Assembly (NCBI RefSeq): GCF_036563305.1
Contig: NZ_DATCMQ010000006.1
Coordinates: forward strand, 268,233-332,232
DNA from: Noviherbaspirillum sp.
GTDB taxonomy: Bacteria > Pseudomonadota > Gammaproteobacteria > Burkholderiales > Burkholderiaceae_D
DNA length: 64,000 nt
Reading direction: 5' to 3'
Positions within the stretch are counted from its first letter, which is position 1. Each line of letters starts with the position of its first letter. This document shows, in pieces, positions 15,208 to 45,302 of the stretch. The position numbers were made by a program, and so were the translations under genes. The notes under the pieces are model-generated. The model saw only the letters and a program-made list of their open reading frames with translations, made no database searches and was not told the DNA's origin.

Positions 15208-15301
15208 GGAGACGTGGCCGAGAGGTCGAAGGCACTTCCCTGCTAAGGAAGCATATGGGCTTAAACCTGTATCGAGGGTTCGAATCCCTCCGTCTCCGCC
15301 A
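15208..15301 (+). tRNA. tRNA-Ser (anticodon GCU)
   Basis: Sequence GGAGACGTGGCCGAGAGGTCGAAGGCACTTCCCTGCTAAGGAAGC...GAGGGTTCGAATCCCTCCGTCTCCGCCA. Acceptor stem is GGAGACG/CGTCTCC, anticodon loop is CTGCTAA, there is a long variable arm, and CCA is encoded. Confidence 0.95.
15285..15301 (+). repeat. attL core (3' end of tRNA-Ser)
   Basis: tccctccgtctccgcca is identical to 55668-55684. Confidence 0.85.
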
Positions 15302-17673: not shown

Positions 17674-19620
17674 ATGTTTCATTCGTTGACGCCGGTCTCG
17701 ATTAATGACTCGTCTCGAGCCTCTCCGCCGCCGCGTGGTCGGAAAAAACGAATGAACAATTACCCTCTGACCTACGGCCGGCTAGGCGAAGCAATGGCCG
17801 CAAAACTACAAACCGAAAAGCGTTCCAACCACAGCTTGGATAACCTCAACGCCGCGTTACGCAGCTTCTGCAAAGAAATTGGCCTATGCGAAAGCGATGT
17901 TATCGGCTCCGAACTACGACAGTCGTATTACCAGGCGCTGGCTTCCCATATAGATGGGCTCACCTCGCTCGGGCGAAGCAAGGCCTATATTGCGAACCGG
18001 AAATCGTACTTGGCGAACTGGCACAGTCTGGTACTCGAGTTGGACAAACAGGCCGCGGCTGCGCTCGGGACCAAGACGCCATTCCAATCAGCACTTGGGG
18101 AGCTAGTCGAGACCGCCGGCTCACAACGCGCACTTGGGCGCGAAGCTGGAGTCTCTGTCGCTTCAATCAAACGCTGGCTCGGCGGTGCACGTCCGGGGGC
18201 GCGGACGGTATCCAGTATTCGCCGGATTGAGCGATTGTTTGGACTGGCTGATGGTACGCTAGTTGAACTAGCATTTTCCGGCAAGCCACGTTACACGACC
18301 CTGCGAGCGCCGCACGCGCCTATCGCGTATCGGGAAAGACTCAAAAACCAAACGAAGAAGACATACCTTATTGCAGACGTGACGCCGCGCTTGCGCGCGC
18401 AGTGGGAAGAGTTCTGCCTTTACAAGACGTCGATTCGGTCCACAATGAAAGCGCGTAATCGCGCAGGTAAGTGGCGCATCACGGAGTCACAATGCCGTCC
18501 TGACCCCGAGAAAGCTTGGTACGCCTTCGTCAATGGGCGATATGTGCCTACTGCGGGTATCACTTGGGGCAAAGTAGCTGCTTATCTGGGCTGGCTGCAA
18601 TTGTCGCGCAGTGACGGTGGCATGCAGATACCACCTGAACAGGCGCAAAGCCTCGGCTGGCTAGTGCGCGACGACTTGATTGAACAGTACCTAACTTGGA
18701 AGATTCGCCGGGCGGGAGGCATTGTTCATTCCGGCATCGCGGAATTTCCACGGCTTGTGCGAGGCTTGGTGCATCCTACGACGGGCTACTTGAAATTGAC
18801 TCCTTCAATAGGAGCGGAGCCGTCGGGTCACGGGAGCCAGACCTGGACCGAACAATGCGAGCGCTGCTTCAATGGTATGCGCGAGCTCCAGCAGCACTAT
18901 GATGAGCAGGCGCAAGCATCACGTGATTCGTTCGAACCTATCCAGGCGGTCCTGTCGTTGGCAAACCCACTCGAGGCGGTCGCCGATATGACCTTCCGGA
19001 TGCAAGCTGACCGTCCATTGACGAACGGGACCCAAGAAGCCATTTGGGCGCGTGACTTGGCCTTGATTAAGCTGCTGATGTCAAATCCGCTGCGCATTAA
19101 GAACTTGCAGGAGCTGACTTGGAGACCCGATAACACGGGTCAGCTGCATCAGCGTGTGGACGGCAGCTGGCATATCAGGATTGAACGCAAGTTCTTTAAA
19201 AACCATCGTGGAGCTGCGCGTGACCGCGATTACGATAATCCGGTAGACCCAGCAGTGTGGCCAACGTTGCAGCAGTATTTGTCGATTCACCGTCCACGGC
19301 TCCTAGGCGGTCGGCATACGGATTTTGCGTTCGTTTCACAGGAGACCGAGTCCGACCGCGGCCCGTGGCTTAGCATGAGCCGGCGAGTGTTTATTCTCAC
19401 CGCGAGGTACCTGTGGGGCTGCCCTGGTGTTGGTTCTCACGCATTCCGTCATATCGTGGCCACTGCAATCCTGAAGGCTAGTCCGAACGACTGGCAAACG
19501 GCCGCGCTGGTACTCCATGACCGGATAGAAACCGTCCAAAAGCACTATGCGCACCTGCGAACTGCAGACGGTACACGCCGATTACATAGTCTTTTCGAAC
19601 AGACGTTTGCGCGTGCATAG
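17674..19620 (+). CDS. Second tyrosine-type recombinase (phage integrase family)
   Basis: 648 aa. C-terminal catalytic motifs HAFRHIVATAILK and LVLHDRIETVQKHYAHL are present. The start may be the ATG at 17752 (MNNYPL). Confidence 0.8.
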   Translation: MFHSLTPVSINDSSRASPPPRGRKKRMNNYPLTYGRLGEAMAAKLQTEKRSNHSLDNLNAALRSFCKEIGLCESDVIGSELRQSYYQALASHIDGLTSLGRSKAYIANRKSYLANWHSLVLELDKQAAAALGTKTPFQSALGELVETAGSQRALGREAGVSVASIKRWLGGARPGARTVSSIRRIERLFGLADGTLVELAFSGKPRYTTLRAPHAPIAYRERLKNQTKKTYLIADVTPRLRAQWEEFCLYKTSIRSTMKARNRAGKWRITESQCRPDPEKAWYAFVNGRYVPTAGITWGKVAAYLGWLQLSRSDGGMQIPPEQAQSLGWLVRDDLIEQYLTWKIRRAGGIVHSGIAEFPRLVRGLVHPTTGYLKLTPSIGAEPSGHGSQTWTEQCERCFNGMRELQQHYDEQAQASRDSFEPIQAVLSLANPLEAVADMTFRMQADRPLTNGTQEAIWARDLALIKLLMSNPLRIKNLQELTWRPDNTGQLHQRVDGSWHIRIERKFFKNHRGAARDRDYDNPVDPAVWPTLQQYLSIHRPRLLGGRHTDFAFVSQETESDRGPWLSMSRRVFILTARYLWGCPGVGSHAFRHIVATAILKASPNDWQTAALVLHDRIETVQKHYAHLRTADGTRRLHSLFEQTFARA

Positions 19621-19823
19621 TGGGTGGGCAGTTGAAGACATATCGGGCCGTATAGGCCCGATATCGGTCACGAGCGTCGTCTATGCGGGACGATTGGGTA
19701 GGGCTCGCTGCGCTGGTTCGAGGGTCATCCATTTGAGCCCACGCGTCTCCAGCACGTAGACGTAATCCTATCGCAGGGTTAGACTTGGTAAATATTTACA
19801 AATAACAATAAATCGGAGTGACC

Positions 19824-20738
19824 ATGCATAAAGACCTGCCGCCGTACTTCCATATCACGACCAAAGCGCGCCTGGAGAAGTCGATTAACTCTCTACTCGG
19901 AATTGTCGAAGGCATCTGCGCAGATGCAAAAATCAATCCGACAGAGATTGGCTTCCTTCGTAGCTGGGTCGGCGAGCATCTGGCAGTAGCGGGTAAGCAT
20001 CCTTTCAATGAACTGGTCCCAGTTGTCATGCGAGCCCTTGAGGACGGTGTCCTTTCTGCGGAGGAGCAACAGGACATTGTCTGGCTCTGCGAACGCCTGC
20101 GTAGCAATTCCTACTTCGACCTCATCACGGCGGACATGCAGCGTCTGCACGCACTCGTCGGCGCCATTGCCGCGGATGGTGAGGTCACCGAGGAAGAGCT
20201 CCGCGGCCTATCTTCCTGGTTGGCGGAACACGACCACCTGAAGACTTGCTGGCCGTATGACGAAATTGACAGTCTCGTAACCAAGGTTCTTTCGGACGGT
20301 CGTATTGACGACGAGGAGCACCGTCTTATCCAGGGATTCTTCGCGGAGTTTGTCGCACTTTACGACGACCGGACAATCGCCTCTCCTCTCGTGGCGGAGA
20401 ACGCGCTTCTGACTGGCCTTTGTGCAGTGTGCCCTGAAATCTCGTTTTCTGACTCGACTTTCTGCTTCAGCGGTGAGTCGTCGAAGCACAGCCGTAGTGA
20501 GCTTTCCGGCCTCGTGCAAGGACTTGGTGGCAAGGTTGTGAGTGGCGTAAGCGGCAAGCTCAACTATCTGGTTATCGGCGCCGATGGCAATCCCTGCTGG
20601 GCGTACGCGTGCTACGGACGCAAAGTCGAAAAGGCGGTGGAGCTTCGGAAGCAGGGTAAGCGCATCGTACTCGTTCATGAGCACGATTTTCACGACGCTG
20701 TAGCAGACGCAAGAACTGGCCTCGACGGGACCTACTAG
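19824..20738 (+). CDS. TerB-like repeats fused to a C-terminal BRCT domain
   Basis: Two internally similar segments (GVLSAEEQQDIVWL / GEVTEEELRGLSSWL / GRIDDEEHRLIQGFF) look like TerB-type helical modules. The C-terminal FCFSGESSKHSRSELSGLVQGLGGKVVSGVSGKLNYLVIG resembles a ligase-type BRCT. ATG at 19824 has a GGAG upstream. Confidence 0.6.
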   Translation: MHKDLPPYFHITTKARLEKSINSLLGIVEGICADAKINPTEIGFLRSWVGEHLAVAGKHPFNELVPVVMRALEDGVLSAEEQQDIVWLCERLRSNSYFDLITADMQRLHALVGAIAADGEVTEEELRGLSSWLAEHDHLKTCWPYDEIDSLVTKVLSDGRIDDEEHRLIQGFFAEFVALYDDRTIASPLVAENALLTGLCAVCPEISFSDSTFCFSGESSKHSRSELSGLVQGLGGKVVSGVSGKLNYLVIGADGNPCWAYACYGRKVEKAVELRKQGKRIVLVHEHDFHDAVADARTGLDGTY

Positions 20739-23378: not shown

Positions 23379-24095
23379 TTACCCCTGTTTTTCCGGTACG
23401 TGCATCCGACGGGCCGTCGACAATAGAAGCAGGTCGTAAGCTATCTTCAGTCCTCCGGCTACAACTAGTGGCCATCCGAAGCTGGAAACGCTCAACAGAT
23501 AGCCTGCAATCGTCGGGCTGACTGCCGAGGCAAGGCTCCGTGGGACAGCCGTCACGCTTGCAGCGGCTGCCCGTTCTTCTGGTGGGACGACGGCCATTAC
23601 AAAGGAACTCCTGGTCGGCACGTCCATCTGCGACAGCGCACTGCGCAAAAGCAGCAGCGTGATTGCCCACGCCAGTGACGGCATGAATGGCACCAGGACC
23701 AGGAAGATGTTCGCGGGGAGATGCGTGAAGACCATGGTATTGACCAGGCCGAAGCGGTTGGCGATGCGGACCGCGACCAGGTAGGAAAAAGCGGACAGTA
23801 CACCTGTCCAGAAGAAGATAGCACCAGCGACCACCGTGGATAGTTCAAATTTTTGAAATAGCCAGAGCGCGACCAGGGATTGGACGACAAATCCTCCTCC
23901 GAATGAGTCAAGGCTGAACAAGGCCGCAAGTGTGAAAACAGTTTTCTTCGACCGTCGCAGCGGCGCCGCTTCTGCATGCTTGGCAGACGATACTCGCCCA
24001 GGCACCGCGCGGTACAGGAGGCCGCAAAGCAGCCCGATAAAGCCGTACAGGAGAAACATGGCTTGCATGACGGCCTTTGAGTCTACCTTCAGCAA
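23379..24095 (-). pseudogene. MFS transporter fragment (C-terminal half only)
   Basis: 238 aa with about six hydrophobic helices and an MFS-like loop. It lacks the N-terminal six-helix half and abuts the ATPase fragment. Confidence 0.6.
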
Positions 24096-24129
24096 GCCGA
24101 CAAGGTATTCGGGAGCCGCGGCGAAGAGT

Positions 24130-24606
24130 TAACCGCAGCCCGACGAGCTGCCCGTCGGCGGCTAGATACATGACGCTTGCACCGTCGTTTCGAAGCTCTT
24201 CAGCCTGTTCGACAAGGGTTTTCCAGTCGACCTTCTCCTGGTCCATCAGGGCAGTGTTGCCGAGTGCGATACGCCGTCCCTTGACTGCACCGCGCACGCC
24301 TATACCGTTTGAGGACTCAAACGTTTCCGGCTTGTCGAGCGCAATACCACCCTTCCGCACTTCGTCGACAACCGTATGTGCCAACGGATGTTCACGGCCC
24401 TGGTCGATACTTGCAGCAATCTGAAGTACGTCTAAATCAGAGAAACTCGGGGCGGCGACTACGCGGTCGAAAGCTGTCTTTCCCTCGGTCAGAGTACCGG
24501 TCTTATCGACGATGAGGGTGTCAATCTCGCGCATCGCCTCGATAGCCGCCTGTAGCGGGAACCATAACCAGAGATTTTGGGAAGCATTCATTGAGACATT
24601 TATCAA
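24130..24606 (-). pseudogene. P-type (heavy-metal-type) ATPase internal fragment
   Basis: Contains the phosphorylation motif DKTGTLTEGK and an N-domain segment (GREHPLAHTVV, GIGVRGAVKGRRIALGN). Both the membrane N-terminus and the C-terminal hinge/TM regions are missing, and the ORF runs out of frame into the MFS fragment. Confidence 0.7.
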
Positions 24607-24926: not shown

Positions 24927-25262
24927 ATGCCTATACAACTGGCGTTTCAAGACGAAAATCTTCGAAAAGTTTGCGAGAGCACTGTTTCGGCGAAGCGCAA
25001 GTACGGCAGACTCGCCGGACCGTCGCTTCACGCGCGTCTGGCGGACTTGAAAGCGGCAGACTCGCCTGCGGACCTTGTCGAGTGGGGGTTCGCAGAATTT
25101 GACCAGGCATCTAAAGACAGGATTGTCATTTTTGTTGACGATTGCTACCGTATTCTTATAGCTGCTAATCATAAGCCGCCGCCTGGCACACCAGGACAGC
25201 TGGACTGGAAGCAGGTAACGCGAGTAAAAATCTTATCCATAGAGCGTGGCAATGAGAACTGA
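24927..25262 (+). CDS. HigB-like (RelE/ParE-superfamily, 'killer protein'-type) toxin candidate
   Basis: About 111 aa starting MPIQLAFQDENLRK. The gene order (toxin first, overlapping the HTH gene by 17 nt) and the pattern L..L.aA.sp.DL....f are HigB-like. The assignment is by resemblance only. Confidence 0.5.
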   Translation: MPIQLAFQDENLRKVCESTVSAKRKYGRLAGPSLHARLADLKAADSPADLVEWGFAEFDQASKDRIVIFVDDCYRILIAANHKPPPGTPGQLDWKQVTRVKILSIERGNEN

Positions 25263-26364
25263 AGTTGATTTCGCTCCCATGTGGGCGGTTCCACCGGGCC
25301 GAACCATCTCCGATTTGATGAAGTCGAGAGGGATTGCTTCGACTCGCGTGGCTCGTCTGCTAGACATGACCGAGAATGACTTCAATAGCCTTTTGGCGGG
25401 AAAGCGCGCCTTGACGGTAGGTGTTGCCGCTCGTCTGGAGGTCGCACTTGGAGCATCGGTCAGCTTTTGGCTGCACCGCGAGGAACAGTACCGAAAGCAG
25501 CTGGCGCAGTTGACTGACGGGGTCGACCCGGACAACGAAGACTACAAGTCCTGGCTCAACGCCCTTCCTGTCAAGGAAATGCAAGGTCTTGGATGGGTCA
25601 AATCGACTAAAGACAAAACTGAAAAGCTTCGCAGGTGCCTTGAGTTTTTTGACGTTCCAAATCTTGATGCGTGGTACCGGACTTACGTCGACTTGAAAGC
25701 TGCGACTGCCTTTCGAACAACGGATGCATACCTTGAGAATGCACCTGCGACCGCAGCTTGGCTCAGGCAAGGCGAACTGCAGGCGGAGCGTGTTGAATGC
25801 GGTAACTGGAGCCCTAAGCAATTCGAGGCGCAGTTGACCAAGATTCGTAGCTTGACCCGGATAGCTGCCCCATCCGATTTCCTGCCAAAACTCCAAAAAC
25901 TGTGCGCAGAAGCAGGCGTCGCCGTTGTCATCCTAAAAGCACCGAAAGGATGCAGAGCAAGCGGCGCAACTTTCTTCGCTAGCCCCAACAAGGCCGTGCT
26001 GCTCTTGTCTTTCCGCTACTTAAGCGATGACCAGTTCTGGTTCTCTTTTTTTCACGAAGCAGCGCATTTAATTTTGCACTGGGATGCTGAATTGCTGATT
26101 CTCGAGACCTCAGACGGCCCCAAGTCTCCTAGAGAGGGAGAGGCCAATCTTTTCGCAGCAGAGCAACTCCTACCACGCGAATTCCAACAGCGTTTGCCTG
26201 AGGCCGCTAAGAGCTTGAGAGGTATCGTGAAGCTCGCCCGAGACGCGGGTGTATCCTACGGGATTGTGGTCGGACAAATGCAGTATCGTGGGCTAGTCAG
26301 GCCCGACCGCTACAACCGTCTGAAAACCCGCTACAAGTGGGAGCAATTAACCTCGGAAAGCTAA
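25246..26364 (+). CDS. XRE/HigA-type HTH fused to an ImmA/IrrE-family zinc metallopeptidase domain
   Basis: N-terminal HTH (ISDLMKSRGIASTRVARLLDMTENDFNSLLAGKRALTVGVAARLEVAL). The C-terminal domain carries a HEXXH motif (FFHEAAHLILH). Confidence 0.75.
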   Translation: MAMRTEVDFAPMWAVPPGRTISDLMKSRGIASTRVARLLDMTENDFNSLLAGKRALTVGVAARLEVALGASVSFWLHREEQYRKQLAQLTDGVDPDNEDYKSWLNALPVKEMQGLGWVKSTKDKTEKLRRCLEFFDVPNLDAWYRTYVDLKAATAFRTTDAYLENAPATAAWLRQGELQAERVECGNWSPKQFEAQLTKIRSLTRIAAPSDFLPKLQKLCAEAGVAVVILKAPKGCRASGATFFASPNKAVLLLSFRYLSDDQFWFSFFHEAAHLILHWDAELLILETSDGPKSPREGEANLFAAEQLLPREFQQRLPEAAKSLRGIVKLARDAGVSYGIVVGQMQYRGLVRPDRYNRLKTRYKWEQLTSES

Positions 26365-27273
26365 ATATGCCGAGGGGCTTTTCTGCCAATTGCAAAGCGA
26401 GTCTTCAATCACCTGCATTCCGACGCCCAAAGCTTTGTCGAGCTCTATTGAGAGCTCGTCGAGCTTTTTCTTGGATAGAAACTCATCGTCCACTGCGCCA
26501 CGGAATAGCAGGCGTGCGCCGCGCACAGGCCCTGTCCCGTGCACCATGTAAGCCGAGGGCGGAACCAAATCTGCCAGGCCGATTTTCCCGACCATCGTGA
26601 GAAAGTCAAACTTTGCAGTTCTTCCAAATCGGTGCACGGCATTCATGCTCTGGTATAGGTAGTCAAACAACTTCTTTGGGTCCGTTCCAACCTTTGCTTT
26701 CGCCGAATCCATGAGGGCTTTGTGTGACCTACTCGGCCCTACCCAGTCAGCGTAGCTCTTAAGAATTACGTCGAGCTGGTCCAGGCTTTCATATTTGCGA
26801 TGGTTGCCAAATGGAAAGTCCGCACGTTGTTTCTTGATGTTGTCAAGATGTTGATGTAACCAAATCGAGAACTTGTCTGGACTCTCCGAAAATTTCTCCC
26901 ACGTCCAAACGAACTGGTCATTGAAAGCCCCATACACCATACGTACCAGACCATAACCCTTCGTGAGATGCTTCCCACAATGCACGAATAGGAAGACTAG
27001 CCAAAACGCCTCGTCCTCATTGCCCATACGCAAATAATGGATGGCCGCTCGAAGCGGGTCGAACATGGCTGCGTCTTTGGGGTCGAGCCGTCTTGGTGAG
27101 ATGTCTCGCTTTGCAATCGCTTTAACGTAGTTAATGCGAGCGACACTATCTACCATTTGTGCGACGAGCGCAGTGAGTTCTGCCTGAGATGGGATACCTG
27201 GCAACGGCTTTCCATCGACGCGATAGTTTCTAAGTTGCTGCTCAAGTTGTGCCGCGAGTTTTGGATTCTTCAT
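26347..27273 (-). CDS. HhH DNA-glycosylase-fold protein, possibly alpha-glutamyl/putrescinyl-thymine pyrophosphorylase (aGPT-Pplase clade 3)-like
   Basis: 308 aa, the last gene of a three-gene minus-strand operon. The HhH-like segment HRFGRTAKFDFLTMVGKIGLADL resembles the GxG..TA..fL hairpin of HhH glycosylases. The family name is a recollection-based hypothesis and has not been verified. Confidence 0.4.
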   Translation of the reverse strand: MKNPKLAAQLEQQLRNYRVDGKPLPGIPSQAELTALVAQMVDSVARINYVKAIAKRDISPRRLDPKDAAMFDPLRAAIHYLRMGNEDEAFWLVFLFVHCGKHLTKGYGLVRMVYGAFNDQFVWTWEKFSESPDKFSIWLHQHLDNIKKQRADFPFGNHRKYESLDQLDVILKSYADWVGPSRSHKALMDSAKAKVGTDPKKLFDYLYQSMNAVHRFGRTAKFDFLTMVGKIGLADLVPPSAYMVHGTGPVRGARLLFRGAVDDEFLSKKKLDELSIELDKALGVGMQVIEDSLCNWQKSPSAYLAFRG

Positions 27274-27298
27274 GTCGATTAATATGGTCCTGAAGTGT

Positions 27299-28366
27299 TT
27301 ACCGCTCGTGTTCGTTGTTGTCGCTCATCGGCTGCTGGCCGTCGAGCTCTTCAGCGTCAAACAGCATCGGTTCTGCAGGCTGTGCCGGCTCTGGATTGCG
27401 GCGCTGACGCTTCAAGATGTGTGCATCGTAGACAGGCGAGTCCATTAGCTTCTTAATGTCGTGAATCTTCTTCCGCTGCGCGCGACTGGCCGAATCTCGT
27501 GAATGCCGAAAAACCTCGAGTAGTCGTACTAGGTCGCACCAATAGGGGTCGAGGTTTGCGAAAGAAGGCCGCCTTCCACGCCTGATGTTTCGCTCCGCGT
27601 TCAAGAGCTTTTCGACTGATGGCCATGGGTCGCCAAGTGGCATAGGCGGCATTGGAATGCGTTCCTGAACACCTTCCTCAAGATAATCATGAATCGCTTT
27701 CGTATTCTTGGTGTACAGGTGAAGGCTCCCGACCGCATGTTTGTAAGGTCCAACCTCGACGCCAAGTGAGCGTGCGATTAGCTCCTGAAGCATGGTGAAC
27801 GCGAAGACATCGTGTGGAAGTCCCATAAATGCATCGTTCGAACGCATCATCACCATCGCATGAAGCTGATGGTTGCGAACAGTGAATTGCAATGTGCAGG
27901 TACAGGGGAGGTCTTCGCGCCGACTCTTGAGATTCTCAGATAGGTCTTCTCCGCGAAAAAGTTGAATGACGGCTCGCCGGGATGACTGGCTCGCCCTCAG
28001 GGTTTCGATTACGTTCTGGACCTGGTTGATGCTTCCATTTAAGGCGAACAGACGAGGACCGTAAGCTCCATAAATCGTCTCACCGTCATCGGAATATTCG
28101 CCATATTTCGAAATGTAGTATTGGATAAAATCCAGTTTGTCTGTGCCCGCGAGGTACCAAAGTAACTCACCCAAGCAGCTGAATAAGGTACTTTTCCGTT
28201 CGGTTCGGCTTAACCGGGCACGTGGATTTTTAATCTGCAGCAGGGCGCCGTTAATCTCCGTCGCGGCACCTTTGGTAGGCGTAATGTCGGACGACCCGCG
28301 CTTACGCAGCAAGCGACGATAAAGCTTAAAGAGAAGGTCGTCGAGTGTTTCTGCGCTCAAATACAT
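27299..28366 (-). CDS. Divergent thymidylate synthase (ThyA)/pyrimidine C5-hydroxymethylase-family enzyme with a C-terminal extension
   Basis: ThyA-family landmarks: ELLWYLAG; the catalytic-Cys region DLPCTCTLQF (compare PCH..FQF); RSNDAFMGLPHDVFAFTMLQ (compare RS.D.flG.PFN); GSLHLY (compare GD.HlY). An extra charged tail of about 100 aa follows. Confidence 0.8.
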   Translation of the reverse strand: MYLSAETLDDLLFKLYRRLLRKRGSSDITPTKGAATEINGALLQIKNPRARLSRTERKSTLFSCLGELLWYLAGTDKLDFIQYYISKYGEYSDDGETIYGAYGPRLFALNGSINQVQNVIETLRASQSSRRAVIQLFRGEDLSENLKSRREDLPCTCTLQFTVRNHQLHAMVMMRSNDAFMGLPHDVFAFTMLQELIARSLGVEVGPYKHAVGSLHLYTKNTKAIHDYLEEGVQERIPMPPMPLGDPWPSVEKLLNAERNIRRGRRPSFANLDPYWCDLVRLLEVFRHSRDSASRAQRKKIHDIKKLMDSPVYDAHILKRQRRNPEPAQPAEPMLFDAEELDGQQPMSDNNEHER

Positions 28367-28434
28367 AGTGACGGTTCAAACAGCATCTGAAGCCAACAAA
28401 ATCCTAGAAGTCAATGAGACATCATGATGTAAGT

Positions 28435-28752
28435 TCACTCAAACAACCGGAGCTGCGAGTCTGCTTGGGCTACCGATGCATGAAGTTCGAGTTTTAGTTG
28501 ACGTCCACGCGAAACAAGCGTGCGGCGGTCGGCCGCCACAGCTCCCCGGCTAAGTGCCATGGCCCTAATTTCGACAGTGACATCGTAGTGGGGCAGCGAT
28601 GCATTGGCATGAAACCAGGTGCGCTTCAATCCCAGGGACTTCGCGAACCGATGTAGTTCATCAAGCGAATCGGCAACCAAATGGCACCATTGGCGTCTGC
28701 GCCAAGCTATTCGAACATTATCAACGTAGACCGCCACGGACCCCTCTCTCAC
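28435..28752 (-). CDS. DUF4031-like small protein
   Basis: The pattern VYVD...W.HL.AD..EELH.FA..LGL.R.WF......PHYDV matches my recollection of DUF4031. The GTG at 28737 may be the true start. Confidence 0.55.
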   Translation of the reverse strand: MREGSVAVYVDNVRIAWRRRQWCHLVADSLDELHRFAKSLGLKRTWFHANASLPHYDVTVEIRAMALSRGAVAADRRTLVSRGRQLKLELHASVAQADSQLRLFE

Positions 28753-29061
28753 CGAATGATTCTATTTTAGTACCAGTGCCCTAATGATACTCTGCAATGC
28801 TTTCTGTCGAGAATTATGACAATTCTAACTTGTGCAGCTTGAAAATCCCGCCGTTATTGCCTATTTTGTAAATTTACTTTAGTGCAACGCCGGCACCTAG
28901 TAATACAGTGATGAGTCAGTATTAGCCTTGCTGACCGCCTGTTAGGTCGTGCCCCCTATTTGTGAGAGGGTACGAATTGGGAGCTGGCGATGAAAGAGGT
29001 CTGGCTGTGGGCGAATCCGACGGAATGGGCCGCATCCCGTGCACCGTGCGCCGCTCTGCCC

Positions 29062-29232
29062 CTATTTAAGTCCGATAGTTTCCACTCCCATGGCCCGCAG
29101 GCAGGCGACCAGGAATGCCGCGCTGAACCGTCTGCGAGTGACCTTGCGGTTTATCTGCTCGGGCGACTCGTTGATTCCCAGTTCCTCGAGCATTCGCGAA
29201 AGCTGTTTGTAACGGATGCCACGCCGAATCAT
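29062..29232 (-). pseudogene. DUF6471-like small HTH gene, probably 5'-disrupted
   Basis: I hand-translated the minus strand to ...WEHFAKELIEAEMIRRGIRYKQLSRMLEELGINESPEQINRKVTRRRFSAAFLVACLRAMGVETIGLK*. The conserved N-terminal part has no in-frame start. An ATG (about 29314) sits in another frame upstream of a G5 run, which suggests a frameshift. Confidence 0.4.
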
Positions 29233-29564: not shown

Positions 29565-30401
29565 TCAGCCACCGCCGAACCCGTACTCTCCGACAAAGTC
29601 CCTGGCGTTTGAAAGCGCTAATTGGTACTCAGGCGGTGTCTGTCTGGCCGGCTCGGTGGCAATACGTAGGTCTTGGACCGTGTACCCAACCATGCATCGG
29701 CGTACTCGCAATGTTCTGCTTTCCTCGCCGCCCAGGTACTCGTCCCGAAGAAGCCGAGCCTGCCCGTCCGCTAGACCTGGGTGAGCTTGCACGACCAGAT
29801 TGACGAACTCGGACCAGTCCTTGTCCGTCTGCGCGGCGGCCGGCGCTGGTTCAGCATTGAGAGCAGCTTTCGCGATGCGTCCTAGCGCGAAGTCTCGAAA
29901 GGCTTGCCGGTGTACACACCATGCACGAACGTGCCATCGGCGAGCAGCTCGAACGAGCGCATGCGGGTAGACAAGGCGGTCCAGTCCTTCTGGGGCTGCC
30001 AGCGACCGATAGCAGATGCGTAGCCCTACGCGTCTACGGCAGGCCTGGGTGATGAGGGCAAAGAGCGCAGGGCGGACCGGTGCCAAATCAAGTCGTAGGT
30101 CTTCGACCGTGAACTCGATATGTGAGAAGCCAAGCTTTTGAACCAGCTGCAGATACTCGTCAGGGCTGTTGCCGGCCAGCCTTGGTTGGAACGACTTTGT
30201 GGGGGTGATGGGCGCATACGGGGTGGCTCGCGTGACCATGTCGGTGAACTCCGCCAAGAAGGCTGCCAGCAGGCGGCTGGCCTGTACGGACTGGATGCCG
30301 AATACCTTACGCAGGCGACTGTTATCAATTTCGCCTTCCCAACGAAGCAGCACTTCCATGTCTCGCAGGCGCAGCTGTGCCGGGGTGAGTGGCGTGTCCA
30401 T
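29565..30401 (-). CDS. WYL-domain transcriptional regulator (BrxR/CapW-like), divergent from jetA
   Basis: 278 aa. It has an N-terminal wHTH-like region and a WYL core (RWHVRAWCVHRQAFRDFALGRI). It lies 69 bp head-to-head with the Wadjet operon. Confidence 0.75.
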   Translation of the reverse strand: MDTPLTPAQLRLRDMEVLLRWEGEIDNSRLRKVFGIQSVQASRLLAAFLAEFTDMVTRATPYAPITPTKSFQPRLAGNSPDEYLQLVQKLGFSHIEFTVEDLRLDLAPVRPALFALITQACRRRVGLRICYRSLAAPEGLDRLVYPHALVRAARRWHVRAWCVHRQAFRDFALGRIAKAALNAEPAPAAAQTDKDWSEFVNLVVQAHPGLADGQARLLRDEYLGGEESRTLRVRRCMVGYTVQDLRIATEPARQTPPEYQLALSNARDFVGEYGFGGG

Positions 30402-30404
30402 ATT

Positions 30405-30426
30405 TTATCTTGTAAGATAAGTTATC
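30405..30426. promoter_or_regulatory. Candidate operator in the WYL/jetA divergent promoter region
   Basis: ttatctt-gt-aagataa is an inverted repeat, and a third ttatc half-site follows directly (gttatcc). The surrounding spacer is AT-rich. Confidence 0.45.
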
Positions 30427-30470
30427 CTTGAAAATAATACTTCAAAAGTGCATGGACCAGGCAAGGTCCA

Positions 30471-31955
30471 ATGGGAGCAGCCTTGACACCGTCCGACCTG
30501 TTGCCGGAACCCATGACCCCACCAGGGGGTCATCCCCTGTTCTTTGAGGCGGAGCGTCAGCGGTTCTTCCGCCCCCTGAATAGCTCCCGCCGGGAGCTTG
30601 TGGCTGCTTGCCTGCGGGCACTCTATGACCGACTGCACGGCCCCATGGCCGACTATGCCCACAACCTCACACGGGACGCGCTGCGCGAGCTCCTGCTGCC
30701 GGTCGTTCGGCAGTACCAAAGCGTCAAGGCGCAAGAGGGTGGCGACGATGAGCTGAGCGGTGCGGAAGCCGATGACCCGCAGGCGCTCGTCGGCATGGTC
30801 ATCCGGGCACTGCTGACCGACGCTTGGCTGGAGCAGTTCGCCGACCGCACCGGCCTCGTCACGGCCTTCCGATTTTCTCGGCCAGGGAAGCTGTTCGCGG
30901 AGGCCCTCTGGTCGTTGGACCGCCCGAGCCGTAGCCGGCAACGCAACATGCGTGGCTGTCGCAACGCCCTGGAAGCGGCGCTGTCCGACCGTGGTGATGC
31001 GCACGATTTAGTCGACGCTTACGAGTATGCCGAAAAGGTCATTGAGGACTTGACTGATGGCATCGACTATTTCCAGGAGCTGGTCCGGCACTTGATGCAA
31101 ACGGCCTCGGTGCAAACGCAATGGAGCGAATTTGTCGAGTTCCTGGACCGCTTCCAGCGCGACTATTCCAAGCAGCTGACCGCCGACAACGCAATGCTCA
31201 ACCGGCAGGCTATCGTGCAGAAGCTGGAGCGGCTTCGCCTCGTCCCCGAGACCAAGTCCAAACGGATGGACGAACAGCTGCGAGACGTCGCCCACTGGGC
31301 CGTGAAGGAACACGTAGGCTCATCCGTCTATGACTGGCTCCTGACCCGCATCGAAGACATCGTTGATGCCGCTTGTCAGTCGAAGCAGCCTGGCTTCCTG
31401 AAGGCCATGGAGACTTACCTAAAGCGGGTCAATGGCCTGGCGCTGCAGTCGATGATGCTGCGCGTAGGCCAGACCCGGCATGCCTACCTTGCCACGATTC
31501 AGCGGGTTGCTGAGGCCCCAAAGGAACAACAGGACCTGCTGCTCGCGCACGTGGGGCAGTTCCTGGCACCCGCGGAGGTGCGGTTGCTGGACCCTGTAAG
31601 CTTCAAGCTCCGAACGGCCGCCCAGCGCCGCAAGGCGGTAACGATTTCCGTTCGGCCGCGCCCCTCTCGAGAAGAGCGTCTAGCTGCGGCTATGGGCCGT
31701 GCCGAGGCGGAGGCCTTCTCCATCCCCAACGAAGAGGTTGCCCAACTGCTTCGACGTGACCTGCGCATCTTTCAACATCCCATTCGTGTCTCAGCGCTCC
31801 CGACGGCCACCGCCCGCGATACCCTCCGTGCCATGCAGGCTGTGGAGGCGGTTCGAAGCGAGGTAGGCGCAGACCTGTCCGTCAAAAAACTGCCCACCCG
31901 CTTGGAGAACGAGCTCTACAGCGGCAACGACTACGAGATTGACCTCAAAAAATGA
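30471..31955 (+). CDS. jetA: Wadjet JetA (MksF/kleisin-like, DUF3375-type)
   Basis: 494 aa and first of four translationally coupled genes (ATGA overlaps). Size and position match the JetABCD pattern. No catalytic motif is expected. Confidence 0.8.
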   Translation: MGAALTPSDLLPEPMTPPGGHPLFFEAERQRFFRPLNSSRRELVAACLRALYDRLHGPMADYAHNLTRDALRELLLPVVRQYQSVKAQEGGDDELSGAEADDPQALVGMVIRALLTDAWLEQFADRTGLVTAFRFSRPGKLFAEALWSLDRPSRSRQRNMRGCRNALEAALSDRGDAHDLVDAYEYAEKVIEDLTDGIDYFQELVRHLMQTASVQTQWSEFVEFLDRFQRDYSKQLTADNAMLNRQAIVQKLERLRLVPETKSKRMDEQLRDVAHWAVKEHVGSSVYDWLLTRIEDIVDAACQSKQPGFLKAMETYLKRVNGLALQSMMLRVGQTRHAYLATIQRVAEAPKEQQDLLLAHVGQFLAPAEVRLLDPVSFKLRTAAQRRKAVTISVRPRPSREERLAAAMGRAEAEAFSIPNEEVAQLLRRDLRIFQHPIRVSALPTATARDTLRAMQAVEAVRSEVGADLSVKKLPTRLENELYSGNDYEIDLKK

Positions 31956-32623
31956 GCCTCCTGTCGCACATCAACGAACAACTCGCGCTTGTCAACATAA
32001 AGCCAGACCGGTTCCGGGAGATTATCAACCGCCTGATGGCGTACGGCGTCATCGTGCGGGATGAAGACCGGGTTGAGCAGCTGCTGTATGACGACGCAAG
32101 GCGCGTCGAGGGCCTGCTGGAGGATTACTTCGACATTGCTGGCTTTCGTTTGTACCACGACAGCAATAACCAGTTCTATCGCCTCTATGTGGCGGGTGCC
32201 GTAGTCGATGGACTGCCTGAGGACATCCTGGAGCCGACCCCATCGCTGCGAGCTCGGGTGTCGCCCGACTTCGTTGCAATCGCACTTGCTCTGCGCTTTC
32301 TGTACCAAAACAAGCTCAATACGGGCGACATCCAGCCGCAGGGCGAAGCGCTGGTGAGCTTCGAGGAAATCGCGGCTACCATGCAGACGCAATTGAAGCG
32401 TCCTCTGCCGAGCAGCATGGGTGACAAGATGGCCCTGTTGGCCGAGTTGAAGCGACATCGCCTGCTCAGCTACACGGCCGAGTTCTCGATTTCGGACGAA
32501 GACGCGCTTCTGGCTATCCGACCAACCATCTTGGGCATCGTGTCCAACGACGCACTAAGTGCTGCCCTCGAGGCAGAAGGCGTGGTTGACCAAGAAACGT
32601 CCGTCGAGGAGAACGGCCAATGA
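31952..32623 (+). CDS. jetB: Wadjet JetB (MksE-like, DUF4194-type)
   Basis: 223 aa acidic protein lying between jetA and the SMC-like ATPase, with 4-nt overlaps on both sides. Confidence 0.8.
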   Translation: MSLLSHINEQLALVNIKPDRFREIINRLMAYGVIVRDEDRVEQLLYDDARRVEGLLEDYFDIAGFRLYHDSNNQFYRLYVAGAVVDGLPEDILEPTPSLRARVSPDFVAIALALRFLYQNKLNTGDIQPQGEALVSFEEIAATMQTQLKRPLPSSMGDKMALLAELKRHRLLSYTAEFSISDEDALLAIRPTILGIVSNDALSAALEAEGVVDQETSVEENGQ

Positions 32624-35600
32624 AGCTCGACCGCTTGGTGCTCGTGAACTGGGGGCAGTTGCAACCGGGTAACTACGAGCTGGGTAACATGACTCTGCTC
32701 ACTGGTCCAACGGGTGCAGGGAAGTCGACGATGCTCGATGGACTCCAAACCATCATGACGGCGGCCTACCAAGGTATTGTGGCTTACAACCCTGGCCAAG
32801 AGGAAGTGCAGCAAAATCAGCGCCGTGGCAAGTCCAGGCGCACCCTTGAGTCCTTCGTGGTCGGCGCCGAGTACAGCCGCTTCTCTCGGCCGGCAGGTGC
32901 TCAGGGCTACCTAGCGGCGGTCTTTCGTCCAGGGCCCGAGGACGGCTCGGCAAAGATGTTCACTGCGCTCGTAGCAGCCTCGGCACGCGTCGACGGCTCA
33001 GGGGAAAGAAGGGACACGAAGCTGGAGCGCCTTGTCCTAGTCATCGTCGAAGACGCAGCCTTGTCGGTCGAGCAGTTTTTCGAGGACGTCGACGAAGGAA
33101 TCTGCGTCCCGGTCGAAGGCATTGTCAAACGGTTGAAGGCCAAGTACCCGAAGGTCATCACCTACGACGACCACAAGCGCGACTACCTGTGCGGGCTTTA
33201 CGGCAGGTTCCGCGGGCGTGTGTCCATTCCTTGGGACGAGGCTCAAAACGCGGCTCGGGCATGGTCGCAGTCGATTGCCTACAAGCCTATCGGCTCGGTT
33301 CATGACTTGGTTCGGGACGACATCCTCGAGTTCGATGGAAAGCTGCTGCAGGAGAGCATCACACGCATCAGCGACCTGATGCGCCAGGTGACGAGCTTGA
33401 AGGTTGAAGGCAAACGCATCGAAGCGACTGTCACTCGACTTCGCGAGCTGAAGGAGGTCATCAGCAAGACCACCGCCACCTTCGAAGAGCAGGTCCAATA
33501 TGACTTGCTCCTGGCTAAGATGCAGCTGGCCGCCGACGAAGAGCGCATCGCCTCAGAGCGGAAGAAAATTAAGGACGATACGGCGCTAGCCGGCCAGAAC
33601 AAGCTCAAGGCCAAGTCCGAAGCGCAGTTGAAGCGCAACGTTGATAGCAGTCGCATTGAAATCGCAGCGAAGTTGAGTGGCATCCCAGCCCACGCTGAGA
33701 AGACTACACTTGACGAACGCCTTGAACGGGCGACGTCGGCCGCGCGCGGCAAGCTCGCTGAGCTTCATGCCGGTCTCCACGCCGCGGCACACATCAAAAA
33801 CATAGGGGACACCATCGTCAAGCGGCCGGTGCCGGAACAGTTCCCGAAGCTGCGCGCGTCGGTAGACGTGGTGGCTAAGGCACTCGCATCCACCAATTTG
33901 GACCGGCTAGCCGGGCTGCTCGATTCCGTGGTGGACGCGAACCGGGATGATGTACTATCGGTGGAGAAGTTGCTTCAGCTCGCCCCTGCATTTGACGGCA
34001 TCGACGCCGGCCTGAGCCCGGTGCATAACTCCTTGGTCGGCACGGAGGGCAGCGTACTCATGGCAGTCGCGGCCGAATTGGCATCGCTCACTCAGAGCAT
34101 CGAGACCGCGAAGAAGGAACGCGGAGAGCTGGCTGAGCGCAAGAAACGCTTGGCTGCGGGTGCCGGCAACTACAACCGGGACACAATCCTTGCGCTTGAC
34201 CGCATTCGGGAGAAACTGCCAGACGCTGGCGTGCAGGTCTTATGCGACCTGGTCGAGCCGGCGTCTGAAGAGTGGCAAGCCGCCATCGAGGGCTACATGG
34301 ACGGCGCGCGTTTCAACCTCATCGTCAAACCGGATTGGGAGGCTCGCACGATTGACTTTCTGCAGTCATGGGGTTCGCGCTCGAAGGTTGTTCAGGGAAA
34401 GCGATGCTTGGACCGCGCTGACCCGTCTCGTGTGCCGGGCACTTCCATCATCCACGAGCTACGCACCGGCCACCCCATCGCGCGAGCCTACCTCATTGAG
34501 CAGTTCGGCTCTGTTGTGAAGGTGGCGGACTCTGAAGAGTTGCGACGGACCCCGCGGGGCCTCACCAAGGACGGCAAGGGCAGTGGCGCGATGACGATGT
34601 TCATCTGCGAACGCAGGGACTTCGTGCTTGGCCGCAACGCTCGTGAGCGGGCGTTGCAGCGAACCACGGAACAGTTGGAAACCGCCGACAAGGACATCAG
34701 TGAGCTGGAGAGCTCCCAGGGAACGTTAGAGGGCTTCCGGAAGTTGCTTACGTCGCTGAAGGAGCCAACGTTCGACGCCCAGCCTCTTGCCCAGCACGCC
34801 GGCGACCTGGATGCTACGCGGCGGTCGCTGTCGCAGCTCGACTTGCGCGAGGTCGAACAGCTACGGGCAGAGCTGATTCGCCTGGAAGAGGTTATCCGTG
34901 TGCACGACGGGGAAATCGAGGCAGCCAACAAGGAGGTCACGCTTGCTGAGCAGCGCATCAAGACCGCGCAAGAAACCATCGAACGCATCAACGCCGCCCG
35001 CGATGCTCGATTTCAGGAGCGCGAGAACCAGACTCGTCGGCTGAAGCATCTTTGCGAAGCGAACTCCGAGAAGACGTACACCGTGATGGCCCAAGAGGTC
35101 GAGGACCTCATCACCTCGCATACGTACGAAGTTCCCGCCGTTCAAGCCCGGCTGAACCACTTACGCACTCAACCCGAAAAGCTTCTGGGAGACGTGCGCG
35201 AAATGCTGGCCGAATACAACACCGCCGTCCGGACTGACGAACGTTTTCAATCTGCGCTGCCGCATCTGACGGACGCCCCGTCCTTCGACCCTTACTACGG
35301 TCCCCTGGTCCTCCTTGGGCGTTCGGTCAGCGCGCTTCATAACGAGCTGGAGAGCATCGGCCTGTACAACAACCGCGCCAAGGTCGAGGAAGCGGAGCGC
35401 TCCTTCCACGACGTGTTCACCAAGCAGTTCTGCGTCGAAATCAAGAGCAAGGTCGACGAAGGCGTGCGGATGCTGCGCCAGTTGAACATCGAGCTCGAGA
35501 AGCTGAAGTTCGGCACCGACCGCTTCAACATCGACTGGTCGAAGTGGGAGCCCGAGTTCCAGGAGTATTACGGCTTCTTCTCCGCCGTCGCGGAACTGGC

Positions 35601-36252
35601 CGATTCGCCGGAAGGGGTGGACCTGTTCGGTGAGACGGAGCTCTCGCCTAAGCACATCGAGGTCCGTGACCGCTTGGTCAAGCTACTCCTGGACCAAGAC
35701 CAGGACAGGGCGGGGCGCGAGCTGCTGCGGATTGCTGACTACCGCAACTACCGACGCTACGAAATCTGGAATGATTCGGACAGCGGCGGCCGCATCGCCC
35801 TGTCGACGTGGGGAACGGGCTCGGGTGGTCAGTTGGAGACGCCTGCGTATATCGTCCGCGCCGCCGTTGTGACCAACCGCCTGCGCCTCTTCGAGAAGGG
35901 CGCCAGCTTGAAGTTGCTTGTCAGCGACGAATCCTTCTCTCGCATGGACGAGCCGCGCGCACGTGCCGTCCTGCGGTATCTGCGAGATAGCATGGGCCTG
36001 CAGCTGGTCAGCGCCATGCCGACCAAGCACGCCGGCGCGCTGCGCCCTGAGTTCGACCGCGAGTTCAGCTTCAGCCGCATGAACGTGCCAGACAACGGTG
36101 AAATTGACTTCGTCTCCGAGTGCGACGAGCGCATCTTCAAGAAGGACCGCATGCGTGAGGTCTGGGAAGCGCAGCGTCAAGAGGTTCGCGAACAAGCCAA
36201 GCTGCTCTTTGATGCCGCACAGCCCAAAGAGGTCACGGGAGCTGCGAAGTGA
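32620..36252 (+). CDS. jetC: Wadjet JetC (MksB/SMC-like ATPase)
   Basis: 1210 aa. N-terminal Walker A (LTGPTGAGKSTMLDGLQ), long coiled-coil-type middle region, and C-terminal Walker B (KLLVSDESFSRMDE). Confidence 0.9.
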   Translation: MKLDRLVLVNWGQLQPGNYELGNMTLLTGPTGAGKSTMLDGLQTIMTAAYQGIVAYNPGQEEVQQNQRRGKSRRTLESFVVGAEYSRFSRPAGAQGYLAAVFRPGPEDGSAKMFTALVAASARVDGSGERRDTKLERLVLVIVEDAALSVEQFFEDVDEGICVPVEGIVKRLKAKYPKVITYDDHKRDYLCGLYGRFRGRVSIPWDEAQNAARAWSQSIAYKPIGSVHDLVRDDILEFDGKLLQESITRISDLMRQVTSLKVEGKRIEATVTRLRELKEVISKTTATFEEQVQYDLLLAKMQLAADEERIASERKKIKDDTALAGQNKLKAKSEAQLKRNVDSSRIEIAAKLSGIPAHAEKTTLDERLERATSAARGKLAELHAGLHAAAHIKNIGDTIVKRPVPEQFPKLRASVDVVAKALASTNLDRLAGLLDSVVDANRDDVLSVEKLLQLAPAFDGIDAGLSPVHNSLVGTEGSVLMAVAAELASLTQSIETAKKERGELAERKKRLAAGAGNYNRDTILALDRIREKLPDAGVQVLCDLVEPASEEWQAAIEGYMDGARFNLIVKPDWEARTIDFLQSWGSRSKVVQGKRCLDRADPSRVPGTSIIHELRTGHPIARAYLIEQFGSVVKVADSEELRRTPRGLTKDGKGSGAMTMFICERRDFVLGRNARERALQRTTEQLETADKDISELESSQGTLEGFRKLLTSLKEPTFDAQPLAQHAGDLDATRRSLSQLDLREVEQLRAELIRLEEVIRVHDGEIEAANKEVTLAEQRIKTAQETIERINAARDARFQERENQTRRLKHLCEANSEKTYTVMAQEVEDLITSHTYEVPAVQARLNHLRTQPEKLLGDVREMLAEYNTAVRTDERFQSALPHLTDAPSFDPYYGPLVLLGRSVSALHNELESIGLYNNRAKVEEAERSFHDVFTKQFCVEIKSKVDEGVRMLRQLNIELEKLKFGTDRFNIDWSKWEPEFQEYYGFFSAVAELADSPEGVDLFGETELSPKHIEVRDRLVKLLLDQDQDRAGRELLRIADYRNYRRYEIWNDSDSGGRIALSTWGTGSGGQLETPAYIVRAAVVTNRLRLFEKGASLKLLVSDESFSRMDEPRARAVLRYLRDSMGLQLVSAMPTKHAGALRPEFDREFSFSRMNVPDNGEIDFVSECDERIFKKDRMREVWEAQRQEVREQAKLLFDAAQPKEVTGAAK

Positions 36253-45243: not shown

Positions 45244-45302
45244 CGGAATTTGTGCACAAGATATCCGGGGCAGCTCTTCCCACGGTACGGATTGCAGAGA
45301 TT

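Follow-up and report, generated by a model that had tools for sequence, protein, structure and literature searches.

A stretch of 64,000 nucleotides from Noviherbaspirillum sp. (contig NZ_DATCMQ010000006.1; hereafter the window) contains a mobile cassette made up of two convergent transcription units that overlap at their 3' ends, one on the plus strand (24927-26364) and one on the minus strand (28752-26347). The minus-strand unit encodes a DUF4031 protein (28435-28752), a thymidylate synthase (TS)-like protein that resembles the hydroxymethylase MilA (27299-28366), and an aGPT-Pplase protein of clade 3, here called Pplase3 (26347-27273). The plus-strand unit encodes a small HigB-like protein (24927-25262) and a helix-turn-helix (HTH) protein with a Peptidase_M78 domain (HTH-M78, 25246-26364). 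These gene identities can be given with high confidence. The cassette most likely functions against phage, by modifying deoxycytidine nucleotides or DNA when induced. The best explanation overall, to which we give roughly an even chance, is that the two enzymes form a cytosine-directed pair that acts against phage under the control of a PD-lambda-2-like switch; an anti-phage role, taken by itself, has slightly better than an even chance.

The three minus-strand open reading frames (ORFs) are where a preliminary description of this DNA had placed them, with gaps of exactly 25 and 68 nucleotides, and the motifs that it quoted (LPCTCTLQF, RSNDAFMGLP, HLY and FGRTAKFDFLTMVGKIGL) are found in the translations. 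The small gene and the start of the HTH-M78 gene overlap by 17 nucleotides, and the 3' ends of the convergent HTH-M78 and Pplase3 genes overlap by 18 nucleotides. A scan of species representatives (one genome per species) gave at least 417 genomes with a Pplase3 relative, and 80 loci were kept for neighbourhood counts, which were made with phmmer within 6 kb of Pplase3 and by unbiased blastp clustering within 8 kb. By phmmer the TS-like gene is present in 73 of the 80 loci, the seven misses all being contig-end truncations, and by clustering in 72. The HTH-M78 gene, convergent with Pplase3 and directly downstream of it, is present in 79 by either method, and the small gene upstream of it in 75 (phmmer) or 62 (clustering). 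The core is thus made up of four genes, TS-like followed by Pplase3, convergent with HigB-like followed by HTH-M78, and pairwise-distance correlations among the four proteins are high (r 0.70-0.84, 63 loci). The preliminary description had instead proposed a three-gene operon led by DUF4031, but the DUF4031 gene is found in only 21 of the 80 loci by phmmer (16 by clustering), and the conserved partners are the two genes at 24927-26364, which that description had left aside. Beyond DUF4031 and a gene of about 266 amino acids (gene X, not in the window), which lies between the TS-like and Pplase3 genes in 43 of the loci by clustering, no further family occurs near Pplase3 in more than 6 of the 80 loci in the blastp clustering, and no kinase.

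The cassette loci span many phyla. The same architecture is found on plasmids of Enterobacterales, Actinomycetota and Leptospira; a Pantoea phage-plasmid carries the cassette beside a restriction endonuclease, on a Rathayibacter plasmid its neighbours are a Dcm-type methyltransferase and an HNH endonuclease, and further copies adjoin type I or other restriction genes. A tblastn search of 50,697 phage genomes (E 1e-3) gave no match to the Pplase3 clade, the PHROG match of Pplase3 is marginal (E 0.002), and the cassette is present on 24 of 2.9 million IMG/VR contigs, always whole. It had been likened to a phage cassette carried on an island; on these counts it is a module of cells and their mobile genetic elements. 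On one of the IMG/VR contigs (IMGVR_UViG_3300025711_000239, 118,644 bp) an identical cassette is found near both ends (L099 and L100); this probably reflects a terminal repeat, or a circular element whose assembly wrapped around.

The direction towards cytosine is predicted from the TS-like protein (355 amino acids). Its Pfam Thymidylat_synt match (E 4.9e-29) covers residues 55-233 only, and in a PDB search its closest solved relative is MilA, a CMP 5-hydroxymethylase (E 3.4e-50 over residues 33-291, with 41.8% identity), the best true TS following at E 1.4e-19. Residue codes for base, sugar and product specificity are available from comparisons of MilA, the T4 deoxycytidine monophosphate (dCMP) hydroxymethylase (T4 CH) and TS (PMC5175136), and for TS homologs generally (PMC13326640). 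They were read here across 68 full-length cassette TS homologs, with an E. coli TS sequence used for numbering alone. At E. coli N177, where Asn recognises uracil (PMC13326640) and Asp selects cytosine, the window protein has Asp186, and Asp is found in 68/68. At R126 and S167, where Arg and Ser specify deoxyribose, it has Arg130 and Ser176, again in 68/68 each. At L143, whose bulky hydrophobic side chain excludes water in TS (PMC13326640) and where an acidic residue admits water to give a hydroxymethyl product, it has Asp152, with Asp or Glu in 62/68. Position D169, where Asn marks the 5-hydroxy-dCMP synthases, is Asp178 (Asp in 68/68), and the catalytic nucleophile C146 is Cys155 (68/68). 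Glu67 is kept in 67 of the 68.

Because of the signatures at Asp186, Arg130/Ser176, Asp152 and Asp178, the enzyme is predicted to convert dCMP to 5-hydroxymethyl-dCMP, its substrate being quite probably dCMP and the product, with a little less assurance, probably the hydroxymethyl compound. The residue set is that of a C5-hydroxymethylase of the T4 gp42/MilA type, namely the Cys and Glu, Asp at the N177 position, an acidic residue at L143 and a retained Asp169, and Cys155, Glu67, His216, Tyr218, Asp186 and the acidic L143 position are all shared with MilA and T4 gp42. The C-terminal extension is also shared with MilA. The preliminary description had noted an extra charged tail of about 100 amino acids; residues ~236-291 of this are the MilA-type extension, and it is the last 64 residues (292-355) that are charged. 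The charged tail is variable, the total length of the homologs ranging from 299 to 400 amino acids. The sugar signature differs: MilA has Lys133/Ala176, the ribose type, and its A176S/K133R double mutant switches to dCMP (PMC5175136), whereas the cassette enzyme has Arg130/Ser176, as in T4 CH and TS.

The simplest alternative is an ordinary thymidylate synthase standing beside unrelated hypothetical genes, which is how public annotation would have it: homologs are named 'thymidylate synthase' in NCBI and JGI, and the Pfam TS domain is indeed present. However, all eight NCBIfam TS equivalog models score below their cutoffs (24-90 bits against cutoffs of 108-576), the best being NF002497 with 90.1 bits against 327. 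The active site carries the substitutions N177D and L143D, and the four-gene linkage is near-invariant across phyla. Because of the residue and linkage data this alternative is effectively refuted, and the earlier view of the protein as a hydroxymethylase-type paralog and not a ThyA is borne out by its MilA match, its equivalog scores and its residue code. As a side observation, three plasmid records (L088, L089 and L090) also carry the Gene Ontology term for dTMP biosynthesis. The public labels are contradicted by the active-site residues; the mislabel is systematic among the homologs checked, and can mislead metabolic reconstructions.

The second enzyme, the 308-amino-acid Pplase3, belongs on profile evidence to the aGPT-Pplase/ADDT family, whose clades are said to have been defined by Iyer et al. 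in 2013. It matches PF18746 (aGPT-Pplase3) with E 1.1e-90 and 304.3 bits (cutoff 25), residues 32-308 aligning to positions 2-279 of the 279 in the profile, and PF18724 (ADDT) with E 5.8e-67 and 226.2 bits (cutoff 26.2). The latter score is higher than that of the verified glycine:DNA transferase M6 gp51 (159.6 bits). Searches by sequence gave no solved structure for Pplase3, even at E 10. An AlphaFold2 (AF2) model (predicted local distance difference test, pLDDT, 92.6) is all-alpha, and its top viral fold matches are predicted structures of phage amino-acid:DNA transferases (AADTs), with probability 1.0 and template modelling (TM) scores of 0.49-0.53. The aGPT-Pplase assignment made in the preliminary description therefore holds, both by profile search above threshold and by the phage AADT fold match.

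Among 82 Pplase3 homologs, C294 is the only conserved Cys (82/82), with E290 and D291 present in at least 97%; in the window protein they lie in the motif EDSLCNWQK (E290-D-S-L-C294-N-W-Q-K). The hhalign program pairs QVIEDSLCNWQ with QEVETVLCKWK of gp51, that is C294/E290 with C247/E243, in a match that spans nothing else (17 columns, probability 3%, not significant alone). Measured from the end of the region that matches the Pfam ADDT model, the two Cys residues also fall at the same place. In the clade 2 enzymes M6 gp51 and ViI gp247 a conserved Cys is essential, as is a Glu close to it, the gp51 mutants being inactive, and the Cys has been proposed to attack C6, which creates an exocyclic methylene at C5 (PMC8989533). 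Cys294 and Glu290 are accordingly predicted, by comparison of sequences, to be the catalytic pair of Pplase3, and it is about an even call, by analogy with the phage enzymes, that Pplase3 acts on a 5-hydroxymethylcytosine (hmC) moiety through Cys294.

The preliminary description had also assigned this protein a helix-hairpin-helix (HhH) glycosylase fold. An HhH element can be placed at residues ~199-231, but the fold similarity is weak, the best PDB match being Pa-AGOG (E 0.23, TM 0.34/0.40), with CacOgg at E 3.6. HhH base-excision glycosylases are nonetheless the only coherent PDB fold matches of the model, and they allow a different reading of the enzyme pair, in which Pplase3 releases or transfers a hydroxymethylcytosine base, as in the MilA/MilB and BcmA/BcmB routes, to give an antimetabolite, a signal or a drain on the dCMP pool. 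The best structural homolog of the TS-like protein comes from a nucleoside-antibiotic pathway, and the lack of a kinase fits chemistry at the nucleotide level. However, MilA and BcmA have the ribose-type Lys/Ala pair in place of the deoxyribose-type Arg/Ser of all cassette enzymes, Pplase3 keeps the Cys/Glu pair of the C5-methylene transferases and not the catalytic residues of glycosylases, the glycosylase match is not significant, and no genes for biosynthetic tailoring, export or resistance are linked in the 80 loci. Nor does the cassette resemble the mildiomycin pathway of MilA (PDB 5b6d/5jnh) in its surroundings, having no MilB-type N-glycosidase partner and a context other than an antibiotic cluster. 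We consider a small-molecule route of this kind improbable.

A further possibility, and the one that had been proposed for this locus, is thymidine hypermodification as in phages M6, ViI and PhiW-14, in which the TS homolog makes 5-hydroxymethyl-dUMP and the Pplase decorates 5-hydroxymethyluracil (5-hmU) in DNA. The phage pathway comprises a dUMP hydroxymethylase, a 5-hydroxymethyldeoxyuridine (5-hmdU) DNA kinase and an aGPT-Pplase2/AADT, and is described by Lee et al. (2021, PMC8989533) for M6, ViI, PaMx11 and PhiW-14. Its likeness to the cassette is considerable: both have a TS-fold hydroxymethylase and an ADDT-family protein, M6 gp51 and the window Pplase3 match the same Pfam model, and they share a Q..E..LC.W motif with a Cys and Glu of catalytic type as well as the AADT fold match. 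Phage AADTs use 5-hmdU-derived DNA, and in the validated E. coli system DS-4 a uracil-type TS together with a 5-hmdU-kinase set does serve in bacterial defence. Against this, the base-specifying position is Asp and not Asn in 68/68 cassette enzymes, while M6 gp58 and the DS-4 TS, both uracil-type, have Asn at the equivalent of Asp186. With the Arg/Ser deoxyribose signature this implies dCMP and not dUMP, and the closest characterised relative, MilA, is a cytosine enzyme. No 5-hydroxymethyluridine DNA kinase is present in the window cassette or linked in the 80 loci, which agrees with what the preliminary description had reported for the window; in M6, for comparison, gp55 is an HMUDK_hel protein. 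The cassette also differs in having no pyridoxal phosphate-dependent, radical S-adenosylmethionine or other tailoring genes, and in being borne by cells and mobile elements, belonging to Pfam clade 3 and being coupled to the HigB-like/HTH-M78 pair, the clade itself being absent from the phage genomes searched. Thymidine as the target is thus very improbable.

The plus-strand unit supplies the evidence for a switch. The HTH-M78 protein (372 amino acids) matches Pfam Peptidase_M78 (E 1.3e-11), with the sequence HEAAH at residues 270-274, and its N-terminus matches the NCBIfam model antidote_HigA (E 1.2e-8, residues 15-81). With a HigA-type HTH joined to a zinc peptidase of the ImmA/IrrE (M78) kind, it has the make-up of component B of PD-lambda-2, and it matches the PADLOC profile PD-Lambda-2_B (E 5.9e-28, residues 47-347 on profile positions 89-375 of 402) as well as the PADLOC profiles capP and RmrA. 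The small protein has 111 amino acids from the ATG at 24927, the maximal ORF starting at 24843. An alignment of its homologs has N-terminal 'ELAF..LR..CE' and 'RLADLRAA.S..DL' motifs and a HigB-like appearance. The only recurring Pfam family is PF05015 (HigB-like_toxin), found for 3 of 35 members (best E 0.0018), and a profile match to the GraT 'killer protein' 6f8s_B (E 0.66) is not significant; the window protein itself gave no match in Pfam or PADLOC, PD-Lambda-2_A included. Its position and the 17-nucleotide overlap are as for component A of PD-lambda-2, though its sequence match is sub-threshold.

The three-gene system PD-lambda-2 (Vassallo et al., 2022; PMC9519451) has been validated as acting by abortive infection. 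Its component A is HigB-like; B, in which a peptidase is fused to a HigA-type HTH, is toxic by itself and is neutralised by A, and a third component is needed for defence. By analogy, 24927-26364 may be read as a PD-lambda-2-type A/B pair, in which the place of the third component would be taken by the convergent enzyme operon. A small upstream gene, putatively HigB-like in the cassette, that overlaps a HigA-HTH::peptidase gene is common to both. The third partner differs, being an operon for nucleotide- or DNA-modifying enzymes in place of a P4-antitoxin-like protein, and the small protein of the cassette is without a PADLOC match and marginally HigB-like.

Put together, these predictions suggest the following mechanism. 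The TS-fold enzyme would turn dCMP into 5-hydroxymethyl-dCMP by means of Cys155 and methylene-tetrahydrofolate, with Asp186 selecting cytosine, Arg130/Ser176 the deoxyribose, and Asp152 admitting water so that a hydroxymethyl and not a methyl group results, as its residue signatures indicate. Cys294 of Pplase3, helped by Glu290, may then attack C6 of the 5-(hydroxy)methyl-cytosine moiety, as its homology to the phage AADTs would suggest, and the resulting exocyclic C5 methylene would be captured by a nucleophile to give a further-substituted cytosine, on the nucleotide or in DNA. The HigB-like/HTH-peptidase pair would keep the system quiet, or free of harm, until the cell is infected or its DNA comes under stress, to judge from PD-lambda-2 and the genomic context. 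The anti-phage outcome would be that the deoxycytidine pool or the replicating DNA is poisoned or marked. Taken as a whole, the idea that bacteria have adopted the C5-methylene-transfer chemistry of phages, redirected it from thymine to cytosine without an activating DNA kinase, and use it as an inducible immune effector, in which the enzyme pair, once released by the switch, makes a previously undescribed 5-substituted deoxycytidine (in the pool or in replicating DNA) that halts replication of the phage or flags its DNA for destruction, is put forward tentatively.

Several points weigh against this account, the foremost being the missing kinase. The cassette has no deoxynucleoside monophosphate (dNMP) kinase, DNA kinase or polymerase, so that the route of 5-hydroxymethyl-dCMP into DNA and the activation of the hydroxymethyl as a leaving group are both unexplained, and the characterised AADTs require a 5-phosphorylated hmU in DNA (PMC8989533). 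Kinases of the host or the phage may be co-opted, the chemistry may take place on the nucleotide, or the Cys enzyme may displace the hydroxyl directly, without its prior activation. The HigB assignment of the small protein is sub-threshold, and PD-Lambda-2_C, which is related to P4 antitoxins, was not found by PADLOC among the neighbouring genes scanned. The three proteins of the enzyme operon have no PADLOC match either, and several copies of the cassette lie outside obvious defence islands, for example in Undibacterium (L001). The short gp51 alignment and the weak HhH similarity of Pplase3 belong here too.

The lack of a kinase also bears on the remaining alternative, self-modification, in which a hypermodified cytosine would be placed, constitutively or conditionally, in the DNA of the host or the element as an epigenetic or anti-restriction mark, comparable to the Dpd 7-deazaguanine islands, with the HigB-like and HTH-M78 proteins acting as regulator or addiction module. 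AADT-family enzymes do modify DNA, Pplase3 is basic (median pI 9.3), the carriers include plasmids, a phage-plasmid and predicted prophages, to all of which anti-restriction would be of advantage, and restriction-modification (R-M) genes are often adjacent to the cassette. But a dNMP kinase for making 5-hydroxymethyl-dCTP is missing, and when products of TS homologs entered E. coli DNA they did so through the co-expressed cognate dNMP kinase (PMC13326640). In addition, no conserved partner nuclease that could read the mark is found in the 80 loci, and the PD-lambda-2-like pair, tightly linked to the enzymes, includes a component whose counterpart in the validated system is toxic, which suggests that the activity is dangerous and not housekeeping. 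Self-modification therefore seems unlikely, and we prefer the anti-phage enzyme pair under its switch.

The nearest precedent for such a role is DS-4, found with DefensePredictor (Science 2026, PMC13092281), which is a validated E. coli system of a TS homolog, an adenylate/dNMP kinase, a 5-hmdU-DNA-kinase-like protein, a TIR protein and Nmad2. It is a precedent for the use of phage-type pyrimidine-hypermodification enzymes, including a TS homolog, in bacterial anti-phage defence. It differs in that its TS is 29% identical to the window TS-like protein and is of the uracil type, and in that it has kinases, TIR and Nmad2 and, going by the gene products listed for it, no aGPT-Pplase. The same paper lists aGPT-Pplase systems (Fig. 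6F, S12A and S12C) as predicted to be defensive, sometimes in defence islands, but not validated. We found no experimental work on clade 3 or its bacterial cassette in the literature, the treatment of clade 3 neighbourhoods by Iyer et al. (2013) not being covered. The Pplase3 family is already in Pfam, and the window copy is one of hundreds; what appears to be new is the cytosine specificity, the four-gene core, the link to PD-lambda-2, the accessory DUF4031 and the absence from phages.

DUF4031 is the accessory lead gene of the enzyme operon. Its 105-amino-acid maximal ORF matches PF13223 with E 1.1e-26 and 93.3 bits (cutoff 25.6; residues 8-85 on profile positions 1-75 of 76). The residues W22-C-H-L-V-A-D28, E32, H34 and P54-H-Y-D57 are invariant, which suggests a functional site. 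An AF2 model (pLDDT 92.5) has no meaningful fold match in the PDB (TM at most 0.31, ribosomal S16 noise); a PDB search by sequence gave no match, and the only PHROG match is to a family of unknown function. The start is most likely the GTG at 28737, giving a protein of 100 amino acids beginning 'MAVYVDN...', as in most homologs. The annotated 81-amino-acid copy in the window (P0165) uses a TTG start that removes the invariant residues D11, W17, W22, C23 and H24, and because of their loss that start is probably wrong.

Upstream of the operon is a non-coding stretch (28753-29061, minus strand) of lower GC, presumed to hold the promoter or operator. It had been described as AT-rich, which is true to a modest extent only (GC 0.435-0.455 over 28700-28999 against ~0.51-0.53 in the genes). 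A simple scan found no minus-strand promoter-like or consensus sigma-70 site 5' of DUF4031, the total of scan matches being at or below the shuffle expectation. A 56-amino-acid DUF6471 ORF beyond it (29062-29232, minus strand) was considered as a dedicated regulator and rejected, as it is not conserved beside the cassette. Its HTH-like Pfam match (E 4e-27) requires at least 12 residues 5' of its single ATG, in a stretch that has no canonical start codon, so it is possibly a pseudogene or a gene with a non-standard start.

DUF4031 is also found elsewhere. A paralogous clade leads operons of DUF4031 and MazG/MazG_C, with M78 and HTH genes nearby. In this second cassette (L085:6001-8286, L086 and L087) DUF4031 is followed by MazG/MazG_C (454 amino acids) and a 209-amino-acid unknown protein, flanked by a divergent HTH gene and by convergent Peptidase_C1-like, Peptidase_M78 and HTH genes. 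It resembles the MazG/MazG-C system predicted by DefensePredictor, which was not validated there. The Burkholderia copies (L085 and L086) have type I R-M hsdMSR genes upstream. The Burkholderia and Cupriavidus cassettes share with the one described here the DUF4031 lead, a nucleotide-metabolising effector, nearby M78 and HTH genes, and a kind of hot spot, downstream of type I R-M hsdR, that the TS/Pplase3 cassette of Paraburkholderia xenovorans LB400 (L003/L011) also occupies. They differ in their effector, in which a MazG pyrophosphohydrolase and a predicted kinase (MazG_C) are joined in one protein that takes the place of TS and Pplase3, and in having HTH and M78 as separate genes. Cassettes of nucleotide enzymes thus appear to have DUF4031 as a lead gene in common.

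It is worth adding a word on gene X, copies of which are at L004:7237-8037, L018:7751-8551, L090:6193-6996 and in 40 other loci. It has no Pfam family, but has the invariant motifs GLNPSN.EF, Y(F)..NPY..WF, CHLDL.PYAT and GFNHNIQSS.G. Profile searches of Pfam and the PDB were empty. Membership of the uracil-DNA glycosylase superfamily was considered and rejected: one Leptospira copy matches TIGR04274 with E 8e-4, far below the cutoff, and none of 26 aligned members does.

In the window, the cassette stands on an integrative island. A tRNA-Ser(GCU) gene (15208-15301) lies at a drop in GC, and the 20-nucleotide 3' end of this gene (GAATCCCTCCGTCTCCGCCA, 15282-15301) is repeated directly at 55665-55684 as a 95% copy, 40,383 bp away. 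The repeats are likely to be the attL and attR of a 40.4-kb island, in which GC is ~0.48-0.62 against 0.62-0.68 in the flanks. Two integrase-like genes follow the tRNA, one with DUF6538 and Int_N (15504-17240) and one with a weak Phage_integrase match and a YdaS-like HTH (17674-19620), and then a gene for a 306-amino-acid BRCT-domain protein (19818-20738) that matches the PADLOC candidate-defence profile PDC-S48 (E 1.9e-9). Just upstream of the cassette, overlapping minus-strand ORFs (23379-24606) have translations that, on inspection by eye, resemble pieces of a P-type ATPase, with the phosphorylation motif 'DKTGTLTEG', and of a membrane transporter; they are probably what is left of decayed genes.

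Beyond the cassette there is a WYL regulator divergent from a complete type I Wadjet operon (29565-37394; JetA 30471-31955, JetB 31952-32623, assigned by position only, JetC 32620-36252, and JetD 36249-37394). This is followed by a 1990-amino-acid Hhe/PDC-S37 helicase-nuclease (37877-43849) with DUF4011, AAA_11/12, an MTES_1575 restriction endonuclease domain and DUF3320, and by a 1324-amino-acid DRT1 reverse transcriptase-nitrilase (51317-55291). Two unannotated ORFs between the last two (45177-46241 and 49939-50859) have no Pfam or PADLOC match. The 40.4-kb island is a defence island, and the earlier statement that the genes are carried on an integrative element beside defence systems is confirmed by the tRNA-Ser repeats and by Wadjet, Hhe/PDC-S37 and DRT1.

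Pyrimidine hypermodification has so far been studied almost wholly as a counter-defence of phages. The cassette is a case in which enzyme families of phage hypermodification have become fixed in cellular mobile elements and tied to a toxin-antitoxin-like switch of the kind found in a validated abortive-infection system. If the account given here is true, it would amount to immunity of a new class, one that works through base hypermodification, with probably a new natural modification of DNA or nucleotides. It would represent a cytosine-directed, kinase-independent branch of amino-acid:DNA-transferase chemistry, possibly with a new modified base or nucleotide, and would add enzymes of interest for DNA-labelling biotechnology. 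It would also provide a first mechanistic handle on what the HigB/HTH-peptidase switch of the PD-lambda-2 type controls.

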